64,000 nucleotides of DNA from Candidatus Iainarchaeum sp. (GTDB taxonomy: Archaea; Iainarchaeota; Iainarchaeia; Iainarchaeales; DTGL01). Location: the NCBI GenBank assembly GCA_026413945.1, contig JAOAJX010000002.1, positions 4,618 through 68,617 on the forward strand. The letters run 5' to 3'. The position numbers and the translations under genes were made by a program. Positions 1 to 62,209 of the stretch are shown piece after piece. Position 1 is the stretch's first letter, and every line of letters starts with the position of its first letter. The notes beneath the pieces are model-generated. The model was not told the DNA's origin. It ran no database searches and saw only the letters and a list, made by a program, of their open reading frames with translations.

Positions 1-108
1 CAGTGCCTGAAGCAAAATGCGTTTCCGGCAAATGTGTGCACTCCGACTAATTTTTACCCGTTTTGCTTCCCCCAACATTTTTATTCTCCATTGCATTATT
101 ATTACTGC

Positions 109-1095
109 ATGGACATCCTGTGGAAAAAAGGCCTTTTGCTTTCAGATGGAATTTCTTTGGCAATTGACTGTAGCTATGCGGAGCACAGCATAGTTACGCA
201 CGCACACACAGACCATGTTTTTTCCTCAAAAGGCGCAGTTATTGGCTCAGAGGAAACGCTTAGGCTGATTGAGAAAGAAAAAAGCCGCTTTGCAAGAAAA
301 AAACCATTGAAAATTGGTGAAAGAACCGAGCTCGGTTCATTTGAAATCTCTCTTAAAAACTCAGGGCACATTCTTGGCTCAGCCCAAGTTTATATTGATG
401 CTTCCGAAAGAATTGCAATAACTTCTGATTTCAAACTCCAAGATTCTTTGATAACAGAGGGCGCAGAGATTTTGCAGTGCGATGCCTTAGTAATTGAAAC
501 AACATTTGGCTTGCCAGAATACGTTTTTCCGGAAAGGGAAAAAGTTTATCAAGAATTTGCATCTTGGGCAAACAAGCAACTTGCTAGTGGGCATTATCTG
601 ATACTTTCAGGCTATGCGCTTGGCAAAGCACAAGAGCTTACAGCATTTGCAAATGAATATTTGGGTGCATCACCAGTAGTGCATGAAGAGGTTTATAAGA
701 ACAACCAGATCTATGAAGAGTTTGGAGTTAAGCTTGGCACATATTTTAAGCTTGACCACAACCTTCGCGAGTCTAATGTGTTGATATTGCCACCATCTTT
801 ATGTAGCACGCATCTTTTTCAGGCAGTAGAATATTCGATAGGCAAGAAGGTTGCAAGCGCAAAGGCAAGCGGTTGGCCTTATAAGGGCTGCTTTGATAAG
901 ATTTTTCCTTTATCAGACCATGCTGATTTTGACCAGCTTATTACATATGTTAAAGAATCTGGTGCAAAGCAAGTCTATACGATGCATGGTTTTTCGAGGG
1001 AGTTTGCACAACACATCAGGCACAGGTTTGGCATTAACACAAAACAGTTGGACATAAATTCACAACAAAAGGCATTGTGGGAATCAGAAAAATAA
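109..1095 (+). CDS. MBL-fold/beta-CASP nuclease (RNA-processing or ligase-associated exonuclease family)
   Basis: Motifs THAHTDH, SGHILGS, TSDF, IETTFG and LSDHADF. Start moved to ATG 109 because the upstream extension is unconserved-looking. Confidence 0.85.
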   Translation: MDILWKKGLLLSDGISLAIDCSYAEHSIVTHAHTDHVFSSKGAVIGSEETLRLIEKEKSRFARKKPLKIGERTELGSFEISLKNSGHILGSAQVYIDASERIAITSDFKLQDSLITEGAEILQCDALVIETTFGLPEYVFPEREKVYQEFASWANKQLASGHYLILSGYALGKAQELTAFANEYLGASPVVHEEVYKNNQIYEEFGVKLGTYFKLDHNLRESNVLILPPSLCSTHLFQAVEYSIGKKVASAKASGWPYKGCFDKIFPLSDHADFDQLITYVKESGAKQVYTMHGFSREFAQHIRHRFGINTKQLDINSQQKALWESEK

Positions 1096-5036: not shown

Positions 5037-6332
5037 ATGGGATTTATCAAAATTCTTGAAGCCATTAAAAAATGCCCACAAAAGGCAAAGATTCGTGGCT
5101 GGATAAAGAGAATGCGCGAGCACAAGGGCAAAATATTCTTTCTTTTGCGCGATGAAACCTCAGAGTTGCAGTGTGTTGCCGATTCAGAAAAAACAAACAA
5201 AGAGCTTTGGCAGATGTGCCTAAATGCAACAATAGAATCAAGCGTTGAACTTTCTGGTACGCTACGAAGAGATGAAAGAGCACCGCACGGCGTTGAGCTC
5301 TCAATCGAAGACTTTAAAATAATTGGTCTGGCAGAAAAATTTCCGATACAAAAAGATTTTTCAACAGAATTTCTTCTTGATGTGAGGCATTTATGGTTAA
5401 GAAGCGCAAAGATGAGGGATGCACTAAAAGTAAGAGACACTGTATTTAGAGCATTTAGAGAATTTATGAGGAAAGAATTAAATGCTTACGAAACTCAAGG
5501 CGCAATGTTTGTTTCTGGAATGGTTGAAGGCGGCTCAACCCTTTTTGAAGTGCCTTATTTCGGAAAGAAAATTTATCTTACGCAAAGCTCGCAATTTTAC
5601 CTTGAAGCTGTGATGTATTCCTTAGGCAATGTTTATACCATAGCCCCAAGCTTTCGTGCTGAGAAAAGCAAAACAACAAGGCATCTTACAGAATTCTGGC
5701 ATGCTGAGGGCGAATTTCCATGGATTGGTCTAAAAGAGTTGTTGGATATTGAAGAGAATATGATAAAATATATGGTTCGCGCTGTTCTTGAGCAGAACGA
5801 AATAGAACTCAAAGCATTAGGCAGAGAGCCTAAAACACTTGAACCTAGCGCTTATAAAAAATATGATCGTATGCGTTATGAGGAAGTGCTCAAAATCGTG
5901 CAAAAAAGGTTTCCATATTTAAAAGGAGCTACAGACTTCGGGGAAAAGGAGGAACGCGAAATTACTAAAGAGAGGAAAGTCCCATTGCTTGTGACCCACT
6001 ATCCTAAGGAGCTCAAGCCCTTTTATCACCGACTTGATCCAGAAGACAATAAGCATGTGCTTTGTTGCGATGTTCTTGCCCCAGAAGGTTATGGCGAAAT
6101 AATTGGCTCTGGCGAACGCATCTGGGAACTTAAGGAAATGCTTGAGAGAATGAAAGAAGAAGGCCTTAGCCCAGAGCAATATGGCTGGTATGTTGACTTG
6201 AGGCGCTACGGCTCTGTGCCGCATGCTGGCTTTGGCTTAGGCCTTGACAGATTTACTGCTTGGGTTACAAAAGCACAGCACATTAGAGATGTTGTGCCAT
6301 TTCCAAGAACATTAAATAGATACTATCCTTGA
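5037..6332 (+). CDS. asnS: asparagine--tRNA ligase
   Basis: N-terminal OB fold (IRGWI...FFLLRD), FRAEKSKTTRHLTEFWH, YGSVPHAGFGLGLDR. Confidence 0.93.
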   Translation: MGFIKILEAIKKCPQKAKIRGWIKRMREHKGKIFFLLRDETSELQCVADSEKTNKELWQMCLNATIESSVELSGTLRRDERAPHGVELSIEDFKIIGLAEKFPIQKDFSTEFLLDVRHLWLRSAKMRDALKVRDTVFRAFREFMRKELNAYETQGAMFVSGMVEGGSTLFEVPYFGKKIYLTQSSQFYLEAVMYSLGNVYTIAPSFRAEKSKTTRHLTEFWHAEGEFPWIGLKELLDIEENMIKYMVRAVLEQNEIELKALGREPKTLEPSAYKKYDRMRYEEVLKIVQKRFPYLKGATDFGEKEEREITKERKVPLLVTHYPKELKPFYHRLDPEDNKHVLCCDVLAPEGYGEIIGSGERIWELKEMLERMKEEGLSPEQYGWYVDLRRYGSVPHAGFGLGLDRFTAWVTKAQHIRDVVPFPRTLNRYYP

Positions 6333-12150: not shown

Positions 12151-12351
12151 CTATTTCAAAGCAAGCCTTATATCCTCAGCAGTTATTGTCTTTCTTTTTG
12201 CATGCTCTGCCAATACTTTTGCCTTTAATGAGATTCTTATGCCTTCTTCTTCAAGTATTTTTGCAAGTTCTACTGCTGCGGAGTTGCTTACTCTAAGACC
12301 ACTTCCTTTTCTAATTATTCTATCAACCGCCGCTACTGGAAGTTCAGTCAT
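12151..12351 (-). CDS. archaeal histone (HMfA/B type)
   Basis: ELPVAAVDRIIRK...RVS...AEHAKRKTITAEDIRLA; SD GGTGA-TATT-ATG. Confidence 0.96.
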   Translation of the reverse strand: MTELPVAAVDRIIRKGSGLRVSNSAAVELAKILEEEGIRISLKAKVLAEHAKRKTITAEDIRLALK

Positions 12352-19391: not shown

Positions 19392-22300
19392 TTAGCCCCT
19401 ATATGCCCATCTTGGGCCTCTTCTTTGAGTTTCTGCTTTTCCACCACCAAAGCTGCTGTTCTTTCGCTTTAGAATATATAAGATTATAAGCCCAACTATA
19501 AGCAACAAAAAGAGTATTACTACTGCATAAAGAATTACTTCTAAGATGCCCCCTCCAGGCAATTGCTGCTCAAGCACTAATGCAAATGCTGTTGGCTCAA
19601 ATGCATTTTTAGCTTTTAGCGCTTGGTATTCAGCTGCGTTTATTGGTGTTTTAAGGTAGTATTCCACTATAATATCTTCAGAATCCTTTTTTTGTGGCTT
19701 AAACAGCAACACAGGATCATCTTTTATGACTTCAAAGGCTACGTCAGATTTTATTTGGGAAGCATTTTTTGCAAGATCTTTTGGAATGTTTTCCCATAAA
19801 AGGATTTTATCATCCGATGACTTGAATTGCAAAAATACTTTTATATAATATTTTGTAACATTTTTATCTTTTATCATTAAAACCTTTATTATTTTCTTTG
19901 CTGATAACTCAACAGTTTTCTTTGCCGCTTCCTCGGCAGCATCATTAGCAAAACCATTTGCCAAAAGAAGTTCTTTTGCTATATCTTTGCTTATCTCAAG
20001 CACTTTTGTTTCAGCCTCTGAGAAACCGTAGTTTTCAAACAGAGCATTCAGTTTTGCGGATGCTTCATTTGCCTTTTCAATGGCGCTGTCATAATCGCCT
20101 TTGCTGTAATTTGTGTTTGCATCGAATATTGCTTGAAGCACCGCATTGTAAAGATCAGTTGCTTCTTTGCTTATTTCAAGATTGTAGCTCCTTATGCTTT
20201 GCAACATATTTGCAGCTTCCGTTCTTTTTGTCATTATATCTGATATTTTTTTCTCGGCTTCAGTTTTCTTTGGCGGCTGCGTTGAAGTAATCCCAATACC
20301 GACGTTTACTGTTGCTAAAGCTTCATTGCCTGCTTTGTCTAAAGCAACTGCCTTGAGGGTGTAACTTCCTTTTGGTAAATTTGCAGTATTCCAACTATGT
20401 GACCAATAAAGTCCTTCCTCAGAGGCTGTTGTAAGCGTTGTTATTTTGTTATTGTCAATGTAAAATGTGACACTTTCCATTTTTGTTTGTGACTCATTAA
20501 TCTTAACCTTAAGCAAATAAGTGCCATCAATAGAAGCCCCTTGCTCTGGCGCAATCCAGACTATTTCAGGCTTTTTTGTATCTATTTCGAAAGTTTTTAT
20601 TGTTTCTTCAAGATTATCCGCAATAACTCTTATTTTTGCAACACCATCATCTCCACTTTCAACAGTAAATGTTGCAGTGAAGTCATCATCAGTAATGGGG
20701 CCTTTAATCTTAATCCAGTCGCTATCTGATGCTTTTTTTATGTAAACATATGCATCTATAAGCTCATCAGTAGATCTAATCCTAACGCTTTTGCTTCCTG
20801 CATTTACATATTGTGATATGTCAACTACGACTTTTGCTGCAGCTGTAGCAATATTAACGCTAGCAATGTCGCTCTCATTGCCAGCATTATCAATTGCAAG
20901 TACTTTGTAGTAGTATTTTGTTCCACTGCTTGTTTTTGTATCAGTCCATGTTGTATCAACAAGAATTGCTCGCCTGTTATTTTCATCTATATTAAAATCG
21001 CTTGCCGTACCTCTGTAAACGCGGTATTCCTTTATGCCGCTTCTTGCATCTGTCGAGGCATTCCAAGTAAGTTTTACATTGTTGTTATCAATTACTGCTC
21101 CAAGGTTGCTCGGCTTACTGGGCTTTGTAAAGTCGATCTTCACAGTGAATGTAGCAACATTGCTGCAAATGCCATTGGCATCACATGCGCGAACTTTCAA
21201 ATAATATACGCCTTCATTTAAATTTTTTAAATCTAAGCGCCTATTTGAACAATAGCTGTTTGAATCTATTACTTTGTCAGGTTCTTTCGCAGCTGAAGTA
21301 TCCCAAGTGCATGAATAACCTATTGCTCCAGGTATCGCATTCCAAGTTATTATAACATTTCTGTCTTTGCTCCAAACATTGTTTTTGTGTGTATTTGATG
21401 AAAATTCAGGCAAAGATGGGAGTATACGTATATTTGGTTTTATTTTGTTGCAATCTGAGAGTTCGCTTTCATTGCCGCTAAAATCAACAGCGGAAATCCT
21501 AAAATAATAGTTTAGATCGCTATTGAGATCTTGTAAAACATAATTTGTTCTGGTTGTAAAACCAGCAAATGTGCCAGTCGCCTTTGTGAAGTTGCAATCA
21601 TTTGTTCTATAGTATATCTTGTAGCCATTCAGATCATAATCTGTATTAGCACTCCATGTAAGTGTTATTGAGCCAGGCCCAGCATATGTAATTAAGCGCA
21701 ATGGCTTAGCTGGTGGGGTGTTGTCTGAGTAGTGAAAGATTACATTGCAGTCCGCACTATTTCTCGTTTCTGATTGGTTCAAAGCACGATCATAAGCAAA
21801 AGCCCTGGTGTTATAACTTCCAGTTCGATCTATGGCTAACTCATTGTAATCACAAACATATGTTCTGCCGCCATCCGCTGTGGAGCAGGCATTTGAAAAG
21901 TTGAAGCTACTGTTCCTTTGTATACCTATTATTGCTATTGTTGCGGTTGCTACACCACTTGCAGTATCGCTTAAGGTGAACTTTAAATTGTTGCTTGTTA
22001 TGTTTGTATTACTATTACAGTTAACATCTGGTGAGGTAAATTTGATTGTTGGTGGAGTATTATCAACATAAAAAACCTTGGAAGATATCTTATTGAAGTC
22101 ATTTATTGTATTAACTTGTTTTTCATAAAAATTCATGTCCAAGAAATAATTGCCATCTGAAATTATAGGTAATGTTATATTAACAAAACATCTCACAAAG
22201 CTCGTAAAATTTGGGCTTTGGCAAAAACCTAAGTTTTGATCTGAAAGATTGTGTGAGCTTATAAAATTTTGGAATTGTCCTTGAACATTGCTATAATAGA

Positions 22301-22517
22301 AATCAACCAATAACTCTTTATCGGTGCTGCCATTTATATCTGAGTCCATTACGTTGAAATCAACCCTTTGTAATCCACTTTTAAAGTACACTCCTTCCAT
22401 GGGCGCAATTAGCTGTATTGCTGGCTCTGCACCAATTGCTGAAGTCGTAAAAATAGCACAAATAATGAGTAAAACAAATACCTTTTTTAAACAAAATTTT
22501 GAATTTCCTTTAACCAA
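19392..22517 (-). CDS. large cell-surface protein with Fn3/Ig-like repeats, C-terminal TM anchor and RWAYRG tail
   Basis: Signal-like N-terminus; Fn3 motifs (LTW..N...GYKIYY; YYFRISAVD..GNES; DKAGN); TM near the C-terminus. TTG start after SD GGGTGA. Confidence 0.8.
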   Translation of the reverse strand: MVKGNSKFCLKKVFVLLIICAIFTTSAIGAEPAIQLIAPMEGVYFKSGLQRVDFNVMDSDINGSTDKELLVDFYYSNVQGQFQNFISSHNLSDQNLGFCQSPNFTSFVRCFVNITLPIISDGNYFLDMNFYEKQVNTINDFNKISSKVFYVDNTPPTIKFTSPDVNCNSNTNITSNNLKFTLSDTASGVATATIAIIGIQRNSSFNFSNACSTADGGRTYVCDYNELAIDRTGSYNTRAFAYDRALNQSETRNSADCNVIFHYSDNTPPAKPLRLITYAGPGSITLTWSANTDYDLNGYKIYYRTNDCNFTKATGTFAGFTTRTNYVLQDLNSDLNYYFRISAVDFSGNESELSDCNKIKPNIRILPSLPEFSSNTHKNNVWSKDRNVIITWNAIPGAIGYSCTWDTSAAKEPDKVIDSNSYCSNRRLDLKNLNEGVYYLKVRACDANGICSNVATFTVKIDFTKPSKPSNLGAVIDNNNVKLTWNASTDARSGIKEYRVYRGTASDFNIDENNRRAILVDTTWTDTKTSSGTKYYYKVLAIDNAGNESDIASVNIATAAAKVVVDISQYVNAGSKSVRIRSTDELIDAYVYIKKASDSDWIKIKGPITDDDFTATFTVESGDDGVAKIRVIADNLEETIKTFEIDTKKPEIVWIAPEQGASIDGTYLLKVKINESQTKMESVTFYIDNNKITTLTTASEEGLYWSHSWNTANLPKGSYTLKAVALDKAGNEALATVNVGIGITSTQPPKKTEAEKKISDIMTKRTEAANMLQSIRSYNLEISKEATDLYNAVLQAIFDANTNYSKGDYDSAIEKANEASAKLNALFENYGFSEAETKVLEISKDIAKELLLANGFANDAAEEAAKKTVELSAKKIIKVLMIKDKNVTKYYIKVFLQFKSSDDKILLWENIPKDLAKNASQIKSDVAFEVIKDDPVLLFKPQKKDSEDIIVEYYLKTPINAAEYQALKAKNAFEPTAFALVLEQQLPGGGILEVILYAVVILFLLLIVGLIILYILKRKNSSFGGGKAETQRRGPRWAYRG

Positions 22518-22622
22518 AATTATCACCCTCACCAAATAAATATTTAGATAAAATCTTTCTTATACTAAAATCTCCTCTAAAAATGTTTTTAATACTTTTT
22601 AAAGTGTTTTATTATTGATAGT

Positions 22623-38247: not shown

Positions 38248-39612
38248 TTATTTAGCACGAAAAACAATAAATTTTTTTCTGCAGATTGCAGAAATAGCCC
38301 TTTTTGTACTTTTAATTATAAATGATAAGAAATAAATCAAATCTTCCAAATTAGGCAAAATTTCTATCTTAAAGCCAAGGATTCTGTATTTTAAGTATAG
38401 ATACACAAAGCCAATGTATGTGCTTGCTATCTGCGATGCCAACAATCCATAAACGCCAAAGTTTTTAGTAAGCGCTAAGCCTAAAACCAAAGTAACTATG
38501 AGTGATATAATTGAGCTTTTGATAGATAAATCAATCCTTTTTAGCATTGTGCATACACAATTGGCCATTATTAAAAGAGAAGCACCAAAAAGCCAAGCCA
38601 TGAAAAGAGGCAACAGCAAATATGCCTCATTATACTTTGGCAAAAATATGTTAAGTATTAGCGGCGCAAAAATCAACGCAAAAAAGCCGAGAGTTACACT
38701 TGCTATCAGAGAAAATTTAAGACCTTTTGATACCAAGCTGGCCAAATCTCTTCTGCTTTTTGCCCTTTGGCTTGCGAATGGCACTATAACATCAATTAGT
38801 GCTAATGTTGGTATTTGCACAGCATAAACAGAAATTTTCTCGGCAATATAGTAAAGACCCATTGTTGCAGAGCTTAAAAATAGACCCATGTAAAAAAGAA
38901 CAGCTTGTATATTTGCCCTCTGTAAAATGTTTGAGACAAAAAGTTCTTTAGCACATTTTTTAATTTCTTTGAATTCTATGTCTTTTTCCTCAAACTTTTG
39001 CTTGCTAAACATTGCGATATAAAATATGAAGCCAATTGTTACTGAAATTATTTTAGCGTAAATTGGTCCCGAAACATTGTACCCCAAAAAAACTACAAAA
39101 ATAAATGCAAACGCAAAGCTAAGGAAGTTCTCGATAGCGGTAACTATCATTACTTTGCCAAAGCTTTTCAAGCCCTTGAAAAGTGCTTCAAAGAGAAGAT
39201 AAAACGGAAAGAAAAGGAAGAGTACGGATGCAGTGCTAAATAGCTTAGCATCACCTCTGCCAATGAGAGAAAGCAAGTGCCCGGAAAAAAGATAAAATAC
39301 AATGAACATAAAAAAGAAAATTGGTATTAGAACTTTTGCAAAGAATAAGAAAAGCGCTCTTGATCTTGCCCTTGGAATATAAACGCAAAGCAGCTGGTAA
39401 AAGACATCAGCGCCAAAAACGTAAACAATATTTCCAATAAATGCAAGCACAAACATTGCTATGCCATATTGTGTAGGCCCAAGGGCATTTGCAATTATAT
39501 AATTGTATAAAAGGCCCGTGACAAGCATTGCAATTCTTGTAGCATAGGAAAATGCTGTGCTTTTGGCAAAAAGCCAAGATTCATCGTTACTCATAAGATT
39601 ACCATTTCTCAA
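38248..39612 (-). CDS. polysaccharide/oligosaccharide flippase (Wzx/MOP family)
   Basis: About 12-14 TM segments; LGPTQYG, GLYYIAEKI; adjacent glycosyltransferases. Confidence 0.8.
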   Translation of the reverse strand: MRNGNLMSNDESWLFAKSTAFSYATRIAMLVTGLLYNYIIANALGPTQYGIAMFVLAFIGNIVYVFGADVFYQLLCVYIPRARSRALFLFFAKVLIPIFFFMFIVFYLFSGHLLSLIGRGDAKLFSTASVLFLFFPFYLLFEALFKGLKSFGKVMIVTAIENFLSFAFAFIFVVFLGYNVSGPIYAKIISVTIGFIFYIAMFSKQKFEEKDIEFKEIKKCAKELFVSNILQRANIQAVLFYMGLFLSSATMGLYYIAEKISVYAVQIPTLALIDVIVPFASQRAKSRRDLASLVSKGLKFSLIASVTLGFFALIFAPLILNIFLPKYNEAYLLLPLFMAWLFGASLLIMANCVCTMLKRIDLSIKSSIISLIVTLVLGLALTKNFGVYGLLASQIASTYIGFVYLYLKYRILGFKIEILPNLEDLIYFLSFIIKSTKRAISAICRKKFIVFRAK

Positions 39613-56421: not shown

Positions 56422-56458
56422 TTTTAACTATAAATGAAAGAGAATGTAATGCGCACAG

Positions 56459-57670
56459 TCATCTTAAAAGCTCTGGCGCAAAAAGCAAAATAAGGCCAAG
56501 CAGTATAAGTATTGCTCCGCCAATTCCCTTGCAGTATCTTGCGTATTTTTCCCCGAGTTTGCTGCTTAATGCAAAGGCAGCAGTACCAAAAATTAACAGA
56601 TCATCGAGCATGAAAAAGAAAACATAAAGCGTTATATAAAAATAGCGCTCTATTGAAGCAATGGCACTTAAAGCGAGGATTTGAGTAAAAACAGCAGGTA
56701 AAGCAGAGCTACACACAAATTCAATAGAATTTACGACAAAAGCCAAGGCAAAAATACCAAAAATCACAGCAATTGAAAGGGGTTTTGAAACAAGTTCCTC
56801 AATTCTGCTAATTGTTTTTTCATGCGATTTTTCATCGCCAACTTTGCATGTTATTGTGCCTTTAGTGGTTAAGAAATCTTTTAAGCCATATATGCCCCCG
56901 CCAAGTGCAACAAGCCCTATCAATATTGTTACAGACCTAAGATATCCAACAAACAAGAACAAATTAAGCCATGCGGTCATAAACAAGAAATAAAGTATGC
57001 CTGAAGCAAGCACGAAGCTTCCAACAATTAGCCATATCTTTTTTCTCTCCCCGATGCCAACCAAAAGCGCTATTAAATATACAAGAACCCACATAGCACA
57101 GGGATTAAAGCCATCAATCAGGCCGAGAATTATTGCTAAAACTGGAAGAGAAAATGAAGTAAGATCCGTTTTTCCGAGAAATGGCAGTTTAAACTCTTTA
57201 AGATTCTCTTCAAGGCCTTGCGACTTGTGATGGCTAACTTGACCTGCTTGTGCGCGCTTGCATTCCTCAATGCACTCTAGTATTGTGCTTCTTATTTCCT
57301 CTTTAGAATGCACACCAATTAAGGCCCTTATATGATCTTTACCAACAAATATTGCTGGAACTCTGACTCTGGGTTCTAGGCCTACTTCAGAGGCAAGTTT
57401 GTGATAAAGAGAAAGCCCTTCAGGTGTTGAAGCATCATGGAAAAAAAAATTTATATCGCGCATTTCTTTTTGAAGTTCGAGAACAATTGGCCTTTGCTCA
57501 GCGCAATGCGGGCATGTTGGAAGATAAAAGTAATGAACTGCAAAGCCCTCTATTGTTGTGGGCTGGCTTGTCTGTTGGTATAATAAAAGAAAAGTGCCCA
57601 GCATGGCAAGAGCTAAGAAAAGAACCAAATTGAACCTTGAGCCGAAAAAACTCTTTATAGAAGAGAGCAT
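56459..57670 (-). CDS. thioredoxin/glutaredoxin (CPHC) fused to CcdA/DsbD-like TM domain
   Basis: PTCPHC; DGFNPCAMWVL; EFVCSSALP. Confidence 0.85.
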   Translation of the reverse strand: MLSSIKSFFGSRFNLVLFLALAMLGTFLLLYQQTSQPTTIEGFAVHYFYLPTCPHCAEQRPIVLELQKEMRDINFFFHDASTPEGLSLYHKLASEVGLEPRVRVPAIFVGKDHIRALIGVHSKEEIRSTILECIEECKRAQAGQVSHHKSQGLEENLKEFKLPFLGKTDLTSFSLPVLAIILGLIDGFNPCAMWVLVYLIALLVGIGERKKIWLIVGSFVLASGILYFLFMTAWLNLFLFVGYLRSVTILIGLVALGGGIYGLKDFLTTKGTITCKVGDEKSHEKTISRIEELVSKPLSIAVIFGIFALAFVVNSIEFVCSSALPAVFTQILALSAIASIERYFYITLYVFFFMLDDLLIFGTAAFALSSKLGEKYARYCKGIGGAILILLGLILLFAPELLR

Positions 57671-57714
57671 ATTGAGATATTTAGATTAAATGTTTAAATA
57701 ACCTTCTTTTTTTT

Positions 57715-58224
57715 ATGATAAGTATGTATTGCAAATATTCAAAAAAAGCCTTTTTGCTTTTTATTCTGAGCTTCACTATATTTTTGTTAGCTATTGTACT
57801 TAGCGGCTGCATCGAGGAAACAAAAAAAGAGATTAATGCATCAGAGCAAGAAAATATTACCAACTATGGCCAAATTTCACCACAAAAAACCCATGTTGCT
57901 TTATCAATCGAAACCGACAAGAAAGAATACTCATCCAATGAAAATGCAAAGATTAACGTTATTGCGATATCTTCTGCCAGCATTCCAAATGTAAAGGTAA
58001 AAATCTGGGGAATAGAAACTTACACTAGAAATTACATTCAAGATGAAAGAATAGTAAATCTAAAAATCGGGGATAATAGAATAGAGTTCAATACAAAAAT
58101 GCCTTATTGCACTTCTGGCTGTGGTGGCGTATATCCCGGAGCATATTTAATACATGCAACTTTAGAGGCCCAAGGCAATGAAATTGCGCAGGCCAAGACA
58201 GAAATTTTGCTCCTAAATAAATAA
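57715..58224 (+). CDS. putative lipoprotein
   Basis: Hydrophobic stretch ending VLSGCI; Ig-like body with CTSGCGG. Confidence 0.65.
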   Translation: MISMYCKYSKKAFLLFILSFTIFLLAIVLSGCIEETKKEINASEQENITNYGQISPQKTHVALSIETDKKEYSSNENAKINVIAISSASIPNVKVKIWGIETYTRNYIQDERIVNLKIGDNRIEFNTKMPYCTSGCGGVYPGAYLIHATLEAQGNEIAQAKTEILLLNK

Positions 58225-58226
58225 CC

Positions 58227-58460
58227 TTAATCGTGTTCCTCGAAGGCTTTCGCTTGCTCTGGATCATTCTTTTGAATCCATTCCATCAGCATTGCAACAT
58301 GCTCTTTTTCTTCATCCCTGTTGTGCTCCAATATTCTCTTTAGTTTTGTATCTTTTGTGCTAACAATTCTTGTCTCATACCAATTTATTGCCTCAAGCTC
58401 TTCAATCAAGCTTTGCCTTGCCATCTTTAAATCTGTATTTTCAACTTCCTTGGAATACAT
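58227..58460 (-). CDS. short ferritin-like protein (encapsulated-ferritin family)
   Basis: SLIEELEAINWY, ILEHNRDEEKEHVAML.EW. Confidence 0.88.
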   Translation of the reverse strand: MYSKEVENTDLKMARQSLIEELEAINWYETRIVSTKDTKLKRILEHNRDEEKEHVAMLMEWIQKNDPEQAKAFEEHD

Positions 58461-58473
58461 AAATTCACCCCCT

Positions 58474-59256
58474 TTATACCAACATCACAAGCGTAATACC
58501 CATTACGGCACAGCCAACAAAAAAGCCAAAGGTCATTATATGCTGCTTTTCAGACACGCAATCATATGCAACTGGGAGAAGCTCATCTATACAAATATAA
58601 ACCATTATCCCAGCAACAATGGCAAGCGAAGCGCCTATAAGTTGCGCTGACAATAAAGGAACTAAGAAAACTGCAGCAATAACAGCACCTAGCGGCTCAG
58701 CAATGCCGGAAAGAAATGACGCCAAAAAGGCTTTCTTTCTGCTCTTTGTTGCATAATAAACAGGCATAGAAACAGCAAAACCTTCTGCTATGTTGTGTAT
58801 TGCAATCGCTAACGCAATGACAATACCGAGCTTAATAGAACTTAAGCTTGCGGCGAATATTGCAAAGCCTTCTGGAAGGTTGTGTATGGAAACACCGAGT
58901 GCAACGAGCACGCCTATTCTAAACAACCTTTTTTCAGAAACTTTTCCTTTATTTTCATCCTCAAGAAGATAGCTGTGTGGCACAAAAAAGTCAGTAAAAA
59001 AAGCAATGCATGAACCTACAAAGAAAAGAGTTAGTGCAGTTCCATAGCCAAGCACTTCAATGCCTGCTGGCAAAATCTCAACAAATGAAACCATTAGCAT
59101 TACGCCAGTTGCAAAGGCCAGTGAAAAGCCCAAATAATATTTTTTAAAGTCCCTAATAAGAAAAATTAATAAGCCACCAACAGCGGTGCTAATGCCAGCA
59201 AAAAAAGCCAAAAGAAAGCCATTCAGCATACTATGAAAAATTACTGCCAAGAACAT
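58474..59256 (-). CDS. zupT: ZIP family zinc/metal transporter
   Basis: GVMLMVSFVE, IHNLPEG, IHNIAEG, SGIAEP, DELLP. Confidence 0.93.
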   Translation of the reverse strand: MFLAVIFHSMLNGFLLAFFAGISTAVGGLLIFLIRDFKKYYLGFSLAFATGVMLMVSFVEILPAGIEVLGYGTALTLFFVGSCIAFFTDFFVPHSYLLEDENKGKVSEKRLFRIGVLVALGVSIHNLPEGFAIFAASLSSIKLGIVIALAIAIHNIAEGFAVSMPVYYATKSRKKAFLASFLSGIAEPLGAVIAAVFLVPLLSAQLIGASLAIVAGIMVYICIDELLPVAYDCVSEKQHIMTFGFFVGCAVMGITLVMLV

Positions 59257-59314
59257 TTAAAATAATAATTAGTAAAATAAGATAATAGGGTTTGCCGTCA
59301 AATGGGGTTATAAG

Positions 59315-59512
59315 ATGGAATGCAAAAAGGAAAGAAATCTTAAGAATTGTCCATGCTCTTATCAAGGTTGTTCAAGAAAAGGCATTTGCTGTGAATGCCT
59401 TAAGCATCATCGTGAAAATGGTGAATTGCCTGCATGCTATTTTTCTAAAGAAGCAGAAAAAAAATATGATAGGAGCATTGAGGCATTTATAGAAGATTGG
59501 AAAAAGCGCTGA
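59315..59512 (+). CDS. small Cys-rich metal-binding protein (DUF6485-like)
   Basis: [19 protein letters not shown]....LPACYF. Confidence 0.75.
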
Positions 59513-59522
59513 TAGAATTTCT

Positions 59523-60182
59523 TTAGTGAGAGCGATTCTCAAGTATTTTATTTAGTGCGTTAATTTCCATCTGCAGCAAATCCCGAATTTCACCTTTTGC
59601 GCTCTTTATTTCTTGTTTTAATCGTTCCATTTCAGCTTTAATTTCATTTCCTGGCTTTTGTGACCAACTATTAAATTTCTCAAGATAAGCTTTGATAAGT
59701 TTTCTCTGCCTTGGATCATGAAGCTCTTGTGCAGCATGTGGCGTTTTCCTCAATAAGGAAATGGCCTCCCTTTCATGCCAACTGCCAGTTGCTTTAATTT
59801 CACCAATAACGGTTCTTATTGATTGTTCTCCAACTTTAAGCTTTCTAGCAAGCTCTCCTTTACTCCTAACGCCTTTTAATATTTGTTCTACAACTTTTTG
59901 TCTAAGAGCAGCTAGTCTTCTTCTTTCTTTAATAATAATTGCCCTTTTATGCTCAGCAACAATCGACATTGTTTCTGGCTCTAAAGATAAGCGGAAAAGA
60001 TCTCTTTGTACAGCGTCTTGGCTTATTCCCAGCATTGTCGCGAGTTCTTTTGTTGGTATTCCTGGCCTTCTAGTTATAATTTCAATCAATTTCTTGCGCC
60101 TTTCCGCAATGTCTGACCGCCTCAATTTTGGCAACCTGAAAGGCTCTTTTGATGTCATTCCACGATTCTTGCTTATTGGCAT
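59523..60182 (-). CDS. orphan tandem-HTH protein (paralog A)
   Basis: HTH1 PGIPTKELATMLGISQDAVQRDL; HTH2 SKGELARKLKVGEQSI; shared C-terminal helical hairpin. Confidence 0.7.
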   Translation of the reverse strand: MPISKNRGMTSKEPFRLPKLRRSDIAERRKKLIEIITRRPGIPTKELATMLGISQDAVQRDLFRLSLEPETMSIVAEHKRAIIIKERRRLAALRQKVVEQILKGVRSKGELARKLKVGEQSIRTVIGEIKATGSWHEREAISLLRKTPHAAQELHDPRQRKLIKAYLEKFNSWSQKPGNEIKAEMERLKQEIKSAKGEIRDLLQMEINALNKILENRSH

Positions 60183-60183
60183 C

Positions 60184-61209
60184 CTATTTTCTCCTTATTA
60201 GATCACCCAAGCTAAAGCGCTTTTTTTCTTCTGGCTCTTTTTCTTTTTGATCGCCCTTATATGCCCAGCGACCGCCTGCTTGCACATCCTCGGTAATTAC
60301 GTCTTCAAGCACTTCACTGGTGTCTTTATGGCTTTCTGTCTCAAATAAGCTTCTGCGCTTGCTTTTCTTCTTTGCGATTGACAAAGCAAGGAAGATGGCA
60401 ACAACCAGCAAAACCAAGGTTAAGAAAATAGCACTATTTTCAAGAGTAAGAAAACCAAATGCTGGAGTCTTTTTTTCTTCCATTTTTTCCTCAACCTTTC
60501 CGACTCTTTCTGTCAAAACAGTAATTTGTTCATTTAGATCATTATACTGAGCTTTTGCTTCTGAAAGCGATGCCTTTTGCTCATTAAGTGAATCATTTGT
60601 GCTTGAAAGGCTTGTGCTTAGCTGATCAACCTCAGCTTCCAAATCTTGCAATGATTTAGACAATGACTGCAGCTCATTTTTGAGCGATGAAACTTCTGCT
60701 TCATTATTGCTTAGTTTGGTTTCGAGTGATGATGTTTTATCTTTAACCGCATTTATTTCACTCTTAAGGGAATTCAGCTCTGATTTAAGTGAGCTTACAT
60801 CTCTGTTCAAAGCATCAAAATTCGAGGCACTTGCAACCTTGAAAACATTAAAAGTTACAGAATCTTTGCTTTTAGTTGAATTAGCTGCTAAAAGACGTAT
60901 TTCAAGCTCATATTTTCCTGCCTTTAAGGGATTTAGCAGAAGCACAAGGCTTTTATCCCCCAAAGGCGAATATTCCTTATAATAGGCAACATATTCTGCA
61001 TTTGTCTCAACACCTAGCTTTTGAGTGAATATAACCTTATCACCCAAAAGCACACGTATCTCATCAAAGCCGGTTTCGGAAATTTTAGCAAAAGCTGAGA
61101 AACTCGTGCCTTCTGGAACATTTTCTGGCAAAATAAGATTCAATGCAAAAGCATTGGTTAGGAAAAACCATAAAACAAATAATACAAAAGCCCTTTTTAA
61201 AAAAACCAT
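60184..61209 (-). CDS. exported Ig-like plus coiled-coil protein with TM anchor and RWAYKG tail
   Basis: Signal peptide, about 120-aa heptad region, TM, cytoplasmic tail; SD GGTGA-TTTT-ATG. Confidence 0.75.
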   Translation of the reverse strand: MVFLKRAFVLFVLWFFLTNAFALNLILPENVPEGTSFSAFAKISETGFDEIRVLLGDKVIFTQKLGVETNAEYVAYYKEYSPLGDKSLVLLLNPLKAGKYELEIRLLAANSTKSKDSVTFNVFKVASASNFDALNRDVSSLKSELNSLKSEINAVKDKTSSLETKLSNNEAEVSSLKNELQSLSKSLQDLEAEVDQLSTSLSSTNDSLNEQKASLSEAKAQYNDLNEQITVLTERVGKVEEKMEEKKTPAFGFLTLENSAIFLTLVLLVVAIFLALSIAKKKSKRRSLFETESHKDTSEVLEDVITEDVQAGGRWAYKGDQKEKEPEEKKRFSLGDLIRRK

Positions 61210-61285
61210 AAAATCACCCTCCTGATTTGAGCTCATTGCTGCTTTGTTTGTGAAAAACCACTATAATTAAGATATGAGGTATTTA

Positions 61286-61316
61286 ATATATCTTACGGAA
61301 ATTATGCTAAATTTCC
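61286..61316 (-). promoter_or_regulatory. TATA plus upstream palindrome GGAAATT-N6-AATTTCC
   Basis: Perfect 7-6-7 inverted repeat at 61297-61316 abutting the TATA region; near-copy at 62065-62098. Confidence 0.6.
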
Positions 61317-61333
61317 TGTAGCAATAAAAAGCG

Positions 61334-62044
61334 CTAATCTCGCCTCTTCTCGAGTATTTTTTTTAGGGCGTTGACCATCATCTGAAGCTTGTCACGCTCT
61401 TCACCACTGGCTCTTTTAATTTCCAAATTAAGTCTTTTTATCTCGCCATCAATGGCTGGTGTTGGTCTATCCTTCCATTCGGCAAATTTCTCAAGGTAAG
61501 TAGTTAATAGCATTCTTTGCCTCTTATCCATTAATGGCATTTCTCCAACGGCTGATCTTGCAAAGTTTAGTCTTGCTACAAGTTCCTTTTCATAATCGCT
61601 TCCTTTTGTCATAATCTCCCTTACTAAGCTATGAAGAAACTCCTTGCCTATGCCCAGGGCTTTAATGAGTTCTTCCTGACTTAAAATATTGCGCCTTATC
61701 AATTCAAGCAGCTCTCTTTTTTTTATTTCCCTCTTCAAACGTTTATTCAATTCCTTGGCTCTCTTACTCTCTAAAACTACTTGCTTTGTTCTCGGATCAT
61801 TTAATAGCTTAGCTATATAAGACTCAACTGTTGACTTTGGCATACCAAGCATTTGTGCAAGTTCTCTGTGTGTTATCGTTGGTCTTTCACGCAAGATTTC
61901 AATAATTTGCATGCATCTCTGCTCTGCTTCTGCCTTGTTGGCCATTCTTCTCCCAAGAGGTTTTCCTTTTCCATGACTATTTGGGCCTAATGGCATCCTT
62001 CTCATCGATGCTGACATAATCATGGCCTCACTAAAAATCAGCAC
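61334..62044 (-). CDS. orphan tandem-HTH protein (paralog B); true start probably further downstream (62023-61996)
   Basis: HTH1 PTITHRELAQMLGMPKSTVESYI; HTH2 SQEELIKALGIGKEFL; C-terminus RQR.L..YLEKF..W...RD.LQM..NAL.KILE shared with paralog A. Confidence 0.7.
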   Translation of the reverse strand: MLIFSEAMIMSASMRRMPLGPNSHGKGKPLGRRMANKAEAEQRCMQIIEILRERPTITHRELAQMLGMPKSTVESYIAKLLNDPRTKQVVLESKRAKELNKRLKREIKKRELLELIRRNILSQEELIKALGIGKEFLHSLVREIMTKGSDYEKELVARLNFARSAVGEMPLMDKRQRMLLTTYLEKFAEWKDRPTPAIDGEIKRLNLEIKRASGEERDKLQMMVNALKKILEKRRD

Positions 62045-62064
62045 AATTATATTCGAAGTAATTT

Positions 62065-62098
62065 ATATATTTAACGGGAAATTGGCTGATAACTACCC
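62065..62098 (-). promoter_or_regulatory. second copy of the promoter motif (ATATATTTAACGGGAAATT-N7-AACTACCC)
   Basis: Aligns with 61286-61316; the second arm has 2 mismatches. Confidence 0.5.
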
Positions 62099-62137: not shown

Positions 62138-62209
62138 GGGCCTGTGGTCTAGTGGTATGACGCCACCTTCACACGGTGGAAGTCAGCGGTTCAATTCCGC
62201 TCAGGCCCA
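62138..62209 (+). tRNA. tRNA-Val(CAC)
   Basis: Anticodon arm CCACC-TTCACAC-GGTGG; GGTTCAATTCC. Confidence 0.96.

Follow-up and report, generated by a model that had tools for sequence, protein, structure and literature searches.

A rare gene cassette of Iainarchaeota-type archaea pairs a stalk-like membrane protein with a double helix-turn-helix protein, its candidate regulator

The 64,000-nucleotide (nt) stretch of contig JAOAJX010000002.1 from Candidatus Iainarchaeum sp. (assembly GCA_026413945.1) analyzed here, hereafter the window, carries three co-oriented open reading frames (ORFs), B, MID and A, which in the ORF listing of the window fill the minus strand at 59523-62044. A and B are paralogs with two helix-turn-helix (HTH) domains each, and MID encodes a predicted membrane protein. 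The double-HTH proteins belong to no described family, and together with MID they make up a rare cassette. We read it, at slightly less than even probability, as a surface-protein cassette with its own dedicated double-HTH regulator, which would autoregulate the unit through a conserved promoter block, B being a recent duplicate placed under the same type of promoter. The original prediction, made from the DNA letters alone, had regarded the two HTH proteins as an orphan pair sandwiching MID and as a dedicated regulatory module, possibly heterodimeric or sigma-like, for a surface or filament protein.

The neighborhoods of the relatives define what is conserved at this locus. A MID homolog precedes the HTH gene, with a spacer of 0-9 nt, in each of the five other lineages found, so that the neighborhood comparison suggested along with the original prediction does reveal a recurrent order, and the MID tails at these loci all keep an LFE motif, G[RK]WA[YF] and a characteristic terminal motif. 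What is conserved is a MID gene with the HTH gene directly behind it; the A-MID-B sandwich is not. Within the window, the A start codon sits 1 nt past the MID stop, indicating that MID and A form an operon in which A is, to judge from this spacing, translationally coupled to MID. A T-run behind the B stop is a likely terminator that would split the B unit from the MID-A unit, since oligo-T termination is the archaeal mode. The proposed dedicated module is therefore retained in its linkage to MID, which recurs in the five other lineages, and in the promoter block shared by the two units, but not in the paralog sandwich, which is not conserved and which the closest relative lacks, having no B.

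This closest relative, on contig L007, encodes a MID that is 68-69% identical to that of the window and a 516-aa neighbor that is 80% identical. Its gene order runs from the 516-aa protein through tRNA-Val, a noncoding spacer of ~330 nt and a promoter to MID and A. B is absent there, tblastn of the spacer finds no remnant of it, and no ortholog of B appears in any other lineage found. In the tree, B groups with the A proteins of the window and of L007 (support 93/97) to the exclusion of P0003, the relative on contig L001, and its branch exceeds that of the window's A more than twofold in length (1.63 versus 0.6). The position in the tree and the long branch mark B as a duplicate of A that arose recently and evolves fast. 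With it came a copy of the cassette promoter and the 5' leader. B retains every residue that is invariant in the family.

The upstream regions of B and MID share a block of ~51 nt with the pattern AATTTCC(C)GT-A-ATATAT-AA-TAC...TAATT-T..TG-TTTTT. Its 20-mer core, the degenerate pattern CCGTWARATATATWAAWTAC, has exact matches only at these two promoters in the 64 kb; one further match, at 39281, carries three mismatches, and 0.08 matches are expected at three or fewer mismatches. Such confinement indicates that the block is not the generic promoter of the organism. The same block precedes MID in L007 (1205-1255), where by our own count 43 of 51 nt agree with the MID block of the window and the surrounding spacer is unalignable; this promoter carries the related 16-mer TTTCCGTWARATATAT. 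The block extends from a core resembling a B recognition element (BRE) and TATA box to ~26 nt downstream, over the expected transcription start, a position that archaeal repressors commonly occupy. Two of the three promoters have inverted repeats of TTCC/GGAA half-sites, candidate operators, immediately upstream (in L007, TTCCGC-N6-GCGGAA). By itself, the 9-mer AATTTCCGT shows no enrichment in the window. The MID promoter of locus L008 (GCA_029258755.1), where no A gene is adjacent, lacks the block and has instead a perfect palindrome, AATCCTT-N5-AAGGATT, upstream of a TATA-like box (5905-6000). We count this correlated absence in favor of a regulator acting at the block, and the sharing of so specific a block by B and MID-A fits a dedicated, probably autoregulatory module.

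The distance from promoter core to start codon is similar in the three units (81 nt for B, 89 nt for MID and, in L007, 83 nt for MID). B most likely starts at M17 of its maximal ORF (61996, MPLGPN...), because MPLGPN aligns with MPISKN of A and because the resulting promoter-to-start distance resembles that of MID. The start of MID is most likely at 61209, after GGAGG / GGAGGGTGA, and the public gene call yields the same 341-aa product.

The description of A and B as collinear paralogs holds: BLASTP aligns them end to end over 198 residues with 38% identity (E 3e-38; 37% in a MAFFT alignment). Both HTH domains are real as well. HTH1 scores above the Pfam cut-offs in A (HTH_11, 33.4 bits; HTH_24, 25.4 bits at a cut-off of 21.9) and in B (HTH_24, 35.7 bits). 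HTH2 of A is borderline (HTH_28, 24.8 bits versus 25) and that of the orthologs lies above cut-off (HTH_23, HTH_28 and HTH_29 in P0003, HTH_28 in the L007 ortholog); HTH1 of P0003 also matches HTH_Tnp_1. A comparison of the HTH1 profile with the HTH2 profile gives a match at 95% probability (E 4e-8), pointing at an internal duplication of one tri-helical HTH.

The AlphaFold2 model of B, built from a two-sequence alignment alone, is all-helical without strands, with a mean predicted local distance difference test score (pLDDT) of 81.8 and a predicted template modeling score (pTM) of 0.52, the latter leaving the relative placement of the domains uncertain. Behind a disordered basic leader rich in Lys, Arg and Pro come the HTH1 helices (30-53, 59-66, 70-82), a long linking helix (84-117), the HTH2 helices (123-130, 134-147) and three C-terminal helices (174-190, 195-211, 214-235). 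The C-terminal motif that had been read from the sequence, D.RQR.L..YLEKF..W...P...I..E..RL..EIK.A.GE.RD.LQM..NAL.KILE.R, is visible in the A/B alignment, but in place of the hairpin assigned to it the model shows three helices. Neither protein contains a hydrophobic segment (maximal 19-residue Kyte-Doolittle value of 0.38 for A and 0.71 for B), and the net charge ranges from +17 to +32 over the family at ~215 aa. In the family set of seven sequences, the invariant residues (R158, L162, L188, D201, Q204, M205, N208, A209 and L214 in A numbering) are concentrated in the C-terminal domain. Between the window and L007, A keeps a near-identical HTH2 recognition helix (GEQSIRTVIGEI versus GEQSIRNVISEI), in parallel with the conserved promoter, and the helices of B differ.

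Matches to Pfam and NCBIfam families never extend beyond one HTH of A or B, and a Foldseek search with the B model finds neither a PDB fold nor a viral fold in BFVD that spans the whole protein. Only local HTH matches are returned, the best being Lrp/AsnC HTHs at 0.5-0.6 Å over ~40 residues, and none reaches E ≤0.001. The family thus goes as unrecognized in these databases as it did on first reading. PHROGs and PADLOC return generic HTH and coiled-coil noise only, for which reason phage and defense readings were dropped.

A HMMER search with a profile of A and B against 1.84 billion representative proteins gave 139 hits, among which only four are full-length relatives besides A and B themselves (P0003, P0013, P0031 and P0034, the last without HTH1). 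The remaining matches are proteins with 2-10 tandem HTH copies that align to HTH1 or to HTH1 and HTH2 only. A fifth relative, the A ortholog with 59% identity, was read from contig L007; A and P0003 share 33%. Four of the relatives lie on contigs of ~1 kb. A scan of GTDB species returned a single match, JAWANJ010000049 (the L001 contig), from a metagenome-assembled genome of a Candidatus Iainarchaeum archaeon, and scans of JGI metagenomes returned relatives neither of the HTH family nor of MID. A word-index search of 5.8 billion clusters with B, a method that needs several shared 5-mers, found B itself only, and exact look-ups of A and of the DUF6485 protein of locus L005 returned nothing. As far as these sequences indicate, the cassette is restricted to Iainarchaeota-type DPANN archaea. 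The label "orphan" is apt as regards rarity, less so in that five other lineages carry relatives. Homologs of MID reach 68-69% (P0145), 56-58% (P0140) and 33% (P0147) identity, and the HTH protein evolves much faster than MID (33% for A and 56-58% for MID relative to L001; 59% and 68-69% relative to L007). Among the partial matches, P0004-P0012 and others are uncharacterised proteins with 6-10 tandem copies of an HTH1-like HTH; P0004 has six repeats of ...DPTLT.(K/R)ELA.KLN(I/V)S...V..YLR.LS, and some, among them P0009, have an N-terminal hydrophobic segment.

MID has a signal-like hydrophobic N-terminus and one transmembrane segment (TM) near residues 250-283, giving a type-I topology, in agreement with the exported coiled-coil TM protein that had been described between A and B on the same strand. 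AlphaFold2 predicts one unbroken helix of ~117 residues (130-246, pLDDT >90), preceded by seven low-confidence strands in the stretch from residue 21 to 109 (pLDDT <50 for this beta head) and followed, after the TM, by a disordered tail and a short terminal helix. Besides the long helix, only the TM is predicted with confidence. On this model, MID looks like a single-pass surface stalk with a small beta-rich head, a rod of ~117 residues, a TM and a tail of ~60 residues. Of the proposed "surface or filament protein", the surface part is kept and the filament part is not. Many Pfam and NCBIfam matches to MID (tropomyosin, SMC, SlaB and others) lie far below their cut-offs and represent coiled-coil noise. 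An alignment of six homologs keeps P..GF(F/L) before the TM, LFE after a basic anchor, an acidic patch with a charge of -5 to -9, G(R/K)WA(Y/F) and a terminal (R/H)F(S/G)LGDLI(K/R)R; within the searches made, the terminal RFSLGDLI(K/R)R is met in MID homologs only. The P(A)..GF(F/L) of MID (aa 248-256, ~60442-60468) and its homologs resembles a PGF-CTERM signal, yet ~60 residues follow it, and no CTERM model for a PGF-CTERM/archaeosortase or other sorting signal scores above cut-off.

The GRWAY motif of the tail extends beyond the cassette. A six-frame search for [RK]WA[YF] finds it in only two ORFs of at least 60 aa in the window, namely in the MID tail and in a 1047-aa Fn3/Ig protein (19392-22535), which bears RRGPRWAYRG at its extreme C-terminus, shortly after its TM. 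G.RWAY[KR]G is thus common to two single-pass surface proteins that are unrelated to each other, in both cases within the cytoplasmic tail. The neighbors of the Fn3/Ig gene encode a geranylgeranyl reductase and a flavodoxin, with no HTH protein among them. GRWAY is probably a general cytoplasmic docking or sorting motif of surface proteins in this organism, and its occurrence in an unrelated surface protein means that it is no evidence for binding to A.

Coordinates of the cassette, its parts and related features in the window (spacers include other loci)
Feature	Residues	Position	Strand	Remark
Gene A		59523-60182	-	219 aa, double-HTH, net charge +21, no TM
HTH1 of A	~27-66	59985-60104	-	Pfam matches
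HTH2 of A	~94-133	59784-59903	-	
Conserved C-terminal helical domain of A	~155-219	59526-59720	-	
Gene MID		60184-61209	-	341-aa type-I membrane protein; maximal ORF to 61236, 350 aa
MID signal peptide	1-22			
MID beta-rich ectodomain	~23-128			
MID long helix	130-246	60472-60822	-	
MID P..GF motif and TM	~250-283		-	
MID cytoplasmic tail	283-341	60187-60363	-	acidic patch, GRWAY, terminal motif
GRWAY of MID tail		60259-60273	-	
Terminal RFSLGDLIRRK of MID		60187-60219	-	
Gene B		61334-61996	-	220-aa paralog of A; maximal ORF from GTG to 62044, 236 aa
MID-A operon promoter block, AATTTCCGTAAGATATATTAAATACCTCATATCTTAATTATAGTGGTTTTT		61253-61303	-	BRE/TATA-like core and ~26 conserved downstream nt
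Perfect inverted repeat GGAAATT-N6-AATTTCC		61297-61316	-	upstream edge of MID promoter (whole region 61253-61316)
B promoter block, AATTTCCCGTTAAATATATAAATTACTTCGAATATAATTGTGCTGATTTTT		62033-62083	-	paralogous to MID promoter; without perfect upstream inverted repeat
T-run, CGCTTTTTATTGC		61321-61333	-	immediately 3' of B stop; likely archaeal oligo-T terminator
Spacer, MID stop to HTH start				window 1 nt; L007 1 nt; L001 4 nt
Spacer, MID stop to HTH start				L002/L003 9 nt; L004 9 nt; L005 0 nt
DUF6485 gene		59315-59512	+	65 aa, Cys-rich, convergent on A
tRNA-Val(cac)		62138-62209	+	head-to-head with B; conserved upstream border of the cassette in window, L007 and L008
C-terminal tail RRGPRWAYRG of Fn3/Ig surface protein		19392-19421	-	C-terminal end of 1047-aa protein

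Flanked by tRNA-Val and tRNA-Leu, the cassette is located 5' of tRNA-Val, in a region of even GC content in which an Rfam scan finds a tRNA match only. On the other side of A, a DUF6485 gene converges on the HTH gene, as it does at every HTH-family locus found (L001, 1694-1891; L007, 2996-3202; L005, 1021-1221; the ends of L002-L004). Genes for Zip and EncFtn follow DUF6485 in three loci, which are all those long enough to show them. The DUF6485 protein has the cysteine motif CPC..GC..G.CC.CL.HH....LP.C and looks by eye much better conserved than the HTH protein or MID; no mention of it was found in the literature searched. The divergent intergenic region between DUF6485 and Zip is short (58 nt in the window, 59247-59324; L007, 3193-3281; L001, 1882-1986) and contains the conserved elements AACC.C...TTTGA...TACC and TTAAATGTTCT, which are unrelated to the cassette promoter; no TTTCCGT block or shared operator is seen there. 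A 66-aa protein at 12151-12351 (-) is, as recognized by eye, an archaeal histone (MTELPVAAVDRIIRK...) and was used only as a host marker.

Locus L008 presents a different arrangement. Its MID homolog, P0147 (33% identity), has an intact tail (GRWAYKG...RFSLGDLIRR) and stands between tRNA-Val and tRNA-Leu beside a PadR gene. Relative to the window, a 3.8-kb block (56422-60182) comprising A, DUF6485, Zip, EncFtn, a 169-aa gene and a 403-aa membrane gene is missing as a unit at L008 7026-7107, so that MID abuts tRNA-Leu; in the window, tRNA-Leu(tag) lies beyond this block. tRNA genes bound this indel, and no recombinase is seen. The 13-kb L008 locus contains no HTH-family sequence, and the representative-protein search gave no extra cluster of the family.

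For these features we favor the following mechanism. A, and here also B, would bind the promoter block and thereby autoregulate the cassette, and the conserved C-terminal domain would mediate either dimerization or binding to the MID tail. The state of MID could then tune the amount of free regulator that reaches the DNA. That A or B regulates MID, and in which direction, we infer from the coupling of the genes and the shared block. A more specific version would make MID and A a split trans-envelope signaling pair, in which the stalk reports outside contact, clustering or cleavage through its tail, the tail holds or releases the double-HTH protein acting on its own promoter, and B is a newly freed copy evolving a different DNA specificity. 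We regard this version as unlikely; if true, it would represent an archaeal analogue of anti-sigma/sigma control assembled from unrelated parts.

DPANN archaea have tiny genomes and few recognizable regulators, many of them live attached to other cells, and almost nothing is known about how their surface connects to gene control. Here, DNA-binding proteins confined to one lineage are always co-expressed with a surface stalk and have a promoter element of their own. They would be a tractable candidate for such a connection, as the system is small: it comprises a pair of short proteins, a DNA block of 51 nt and a tail peptide of 11 residues. In addition, the window catches a fresh duplication of a regulator together with its promoter, a clean natural example of a circuit branching. 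If A were merely a generic basic DNA binder, the finding would shrink to another uncharacterised HTH family.

Several observations weigh against an autoregulating, dedicated regulator. Conservation peaks in the C-terminal domain, so the recognition helices are not where the invariant residues cluster, and the net charge of the family is high for a protein that recognizes a particular sequence and would be in keeping with non-specific binding of nucleic acids. The promoter comparison covers only three promoters, of which that of B has only an imperfect repeat, and the duplication could simply have carried the promoter copy along without its being an operator. In L008, MID keeps its tail motifs without an adjacent A, and GRWAY also ends an unrelated surface protein, which together imply that the tail has at least one partner other than A. 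The loss of A together with DUF6485, Zip and EncFtn in the same locus hints at a link to that block. Finally, a search of sequencing runs located the locus in one DNA run, a hot-spring metagenome, and in no RNA run.

The same charge and conservation pattern underlies the alternative that A and B are non-specific basic nucleic-acid binders docked at the membrane by the acidic MID tail, serving as a tether or architectural element that anchors DNA or RNA to the envelope and controlling no transcription. The extreme charge and the disordered Lys/Arg/Pro-rich leader would be expected of such proteins. Recognition helices vary among orthologs, and the conserved part is a C-terminal domain resembling a protein-interaction module; the acidic patch of the tail would offer the docking site, the 0-9 nt coupling suggests stoichiometric co-production, and the HTH1 type recurs in the 6-10-copy tandem arrays of other proteins. 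This reading leaves unexplained, however, why a specific promoter block is conserved and common to the B and MID-A units and why the HTH2 recognition helices of the two A proteins in the window and L007 are near-identical, and it sits poorly with the intact tail of L008 MID in the absence of an adjacent A. We consider it about as improbable as the signaling pair. Still less probable, in our view, is that A represses the adjacent DUF6485, Zip and EncFtn genes as a MarR/ZitR-like protein without a wing, its coupling to MID being incidental. What recommends this idea is a PDB profile search with the seven-sequence family profile, whose best matches are ZitR and AdcR (E 4.6e-6 over HTH2 and the C-terminal helices), together with the constant presence of convergent DUF6485, the Zip and EncFtn genes behind it in three genomes and the joint absence of A and the whole metal block from L008. 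The top Foldseek matches, to MntR, are not significant (E-values ≥0.8). The metal ligands of ZitR, which we take to be E41/H42, E107/H108 and H112, align in our own mapping to Lys, Asp, Arg and Gln, and the family has no conserved His or Cys, so that a ZitR/AdcR zinc sensor is rejected. Membership in the MarR family is likewise rejected, as the beta-hairpin wing is absent (no strand in the model, and a 7-residue gap at this place in the ZitR alignment). MarR_2 reaches 27.1 bits on B at a cut-off of 27 (16.7 bits on A), but only over profile positions 8-45 of 61, on HTH1 and outside the ZitR-aligned region; at most, the second half of the protein may be a distant relative of MarR. The DUF6485-Zip intergenic region is conserved and yet free of the TTTCCGT block, and A is, by its position, co-transcribed with MID and not with the metal genes.

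The two paralogs under one type of promoter, together with weak Sigma70_r4 matches, could also be taken to mean that A and B work only as a heterodimer, or that they initiate transcription of the surface gene as a two-HTH factor of sigma-like type. The heterodimeric and the sigma-like idea go back to the original prediction, and neither survives well. B has no ortholog in any other lineage found and the closest relative lacks it, so that a single copy suffices for the family and the heterodimer cannot be its normal state. As for a sigma factor, Sigma70_r4 and r4_2 score 14-20 bits at cut-offs of 24-26 and TIGR02937 12-13 bits at 42.9, sigma region 2 is missing, and the host is archaeal (a Candidatus Iainarchaeum relative, with a histone recognized by eye) rather than bacterial. 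Archaeal transcription initiation uses TBP and TFB, and this host should do the same. We find both the heterodimer and the sigma-like factor very improbable. An equally slim chance attaches to the double HTH being a domesticated module of transposase or excisionase type, a mobile-element relic brought in beside the tRNA genes. The transposase-type HTH_23, HTH_28 and HTH_29 matches of HTH2, the HTH_Tnp_1 match in P0003, the location between tRNA-Val and tRNA-Leu and the indel from A to the 403-aa gene relative to L008 would accord with this origin, but the region contains no integrase, DDE domain or repeats and its GC content is even, PHROG, PADLOC and BFVD matches are generic HTH or coiled-coil only, synteny with housekeeping neighbors is kept in three genomes, and the cassette lies on the 5' side of tRNA-Val. 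An IS3/IS630-type transposase is excluded by the nature of the protein, which has HTH matches only, ends at 219 aa and lacks a DDE catalytic domain.

Compared with known systems, the double-HTH proteins and MID recall several families without joining any. Lrp/AsnC proteins (PDB 2dbb, 2ia0, 1i1g) share the N-terminal HTH_24, and it is HTH1 that superposes on them in the local Foldseek matches (2dbb, 2ia0). Membership is nevertheless rejected, as Pfam detects no RAM (AsnC_trans_reg) effector domain and the model is all-helical; relative to Lrp/AsnC and to the tandem-HTH proteins, A and B are set apart by exactly two HTHs and a family-specific C-terminal domain. ZitR and AdcR (PDB 5yhx, 3tgn), the best PDB profile matches, have a similar helical layout around one HTH, whereas A and B, devoid of the beta wing and the metal ligands, possess an extra N-terminal HTH and a long helix and give no global Foldseek match. 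MID resembles SlaB, the stalk of the surface layer in Sulfolobales, in its signal peptide, beta-sandwich domain, long coiled coil and C-terminal TM. However, its match to NF040788 (33 bits, cut-off 700) rests on coiled-coil similarity and excludes identity with SlaB, which has neither a conserved 60-residue tail nor a coupled HTH gene, and the MID locus has no slaA-like partner. MID is not a PGF-CTERM/archaeosortase substrate either, for the tail behind its TM and the CTERM scores described above.

As an arrangement, the cassette is closest to regulators tied to membrane proteins. Transmembrane transcription regulators combine a DNA-binding domain and at least one TM on the same polypeptide (PMC10269533), a definition that excludes the present proteins, in which the two reside on separate chains. 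The likeness to ToxR/ToxS, TcpP/TcpH (PMC11323476) and CadC lies in the genetic link between a DNA-binding regulator and a single-pass membrane protein that has an extracytoplasmic domain; the differences are that A and B have no TM, that MID is a separate protein whose stalk ectodomain is not a known sensor, and that there is no sequence relationship. Pairs of extracytoplasmic function (ECF) sigma and anti-sigma factors offer a second parallel, as they too consist of a soluble DNA-directed factor co-transcribed with a single-pass membrane protein able to hold it, with autoregulation from their own promoter being typical. They differ in that the present host is an archaeon without sigma factors, and in that MID has the reverse topology, being oriented N-out and C-in and exposing only a disordered 60-residue tail to the inside. 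Within the archaea, ArnR and ArnR1 are paralogous regulators of a surface structure, and it is as such a paralogous archaeal pair tied to a surface structure that A and B resemble them.

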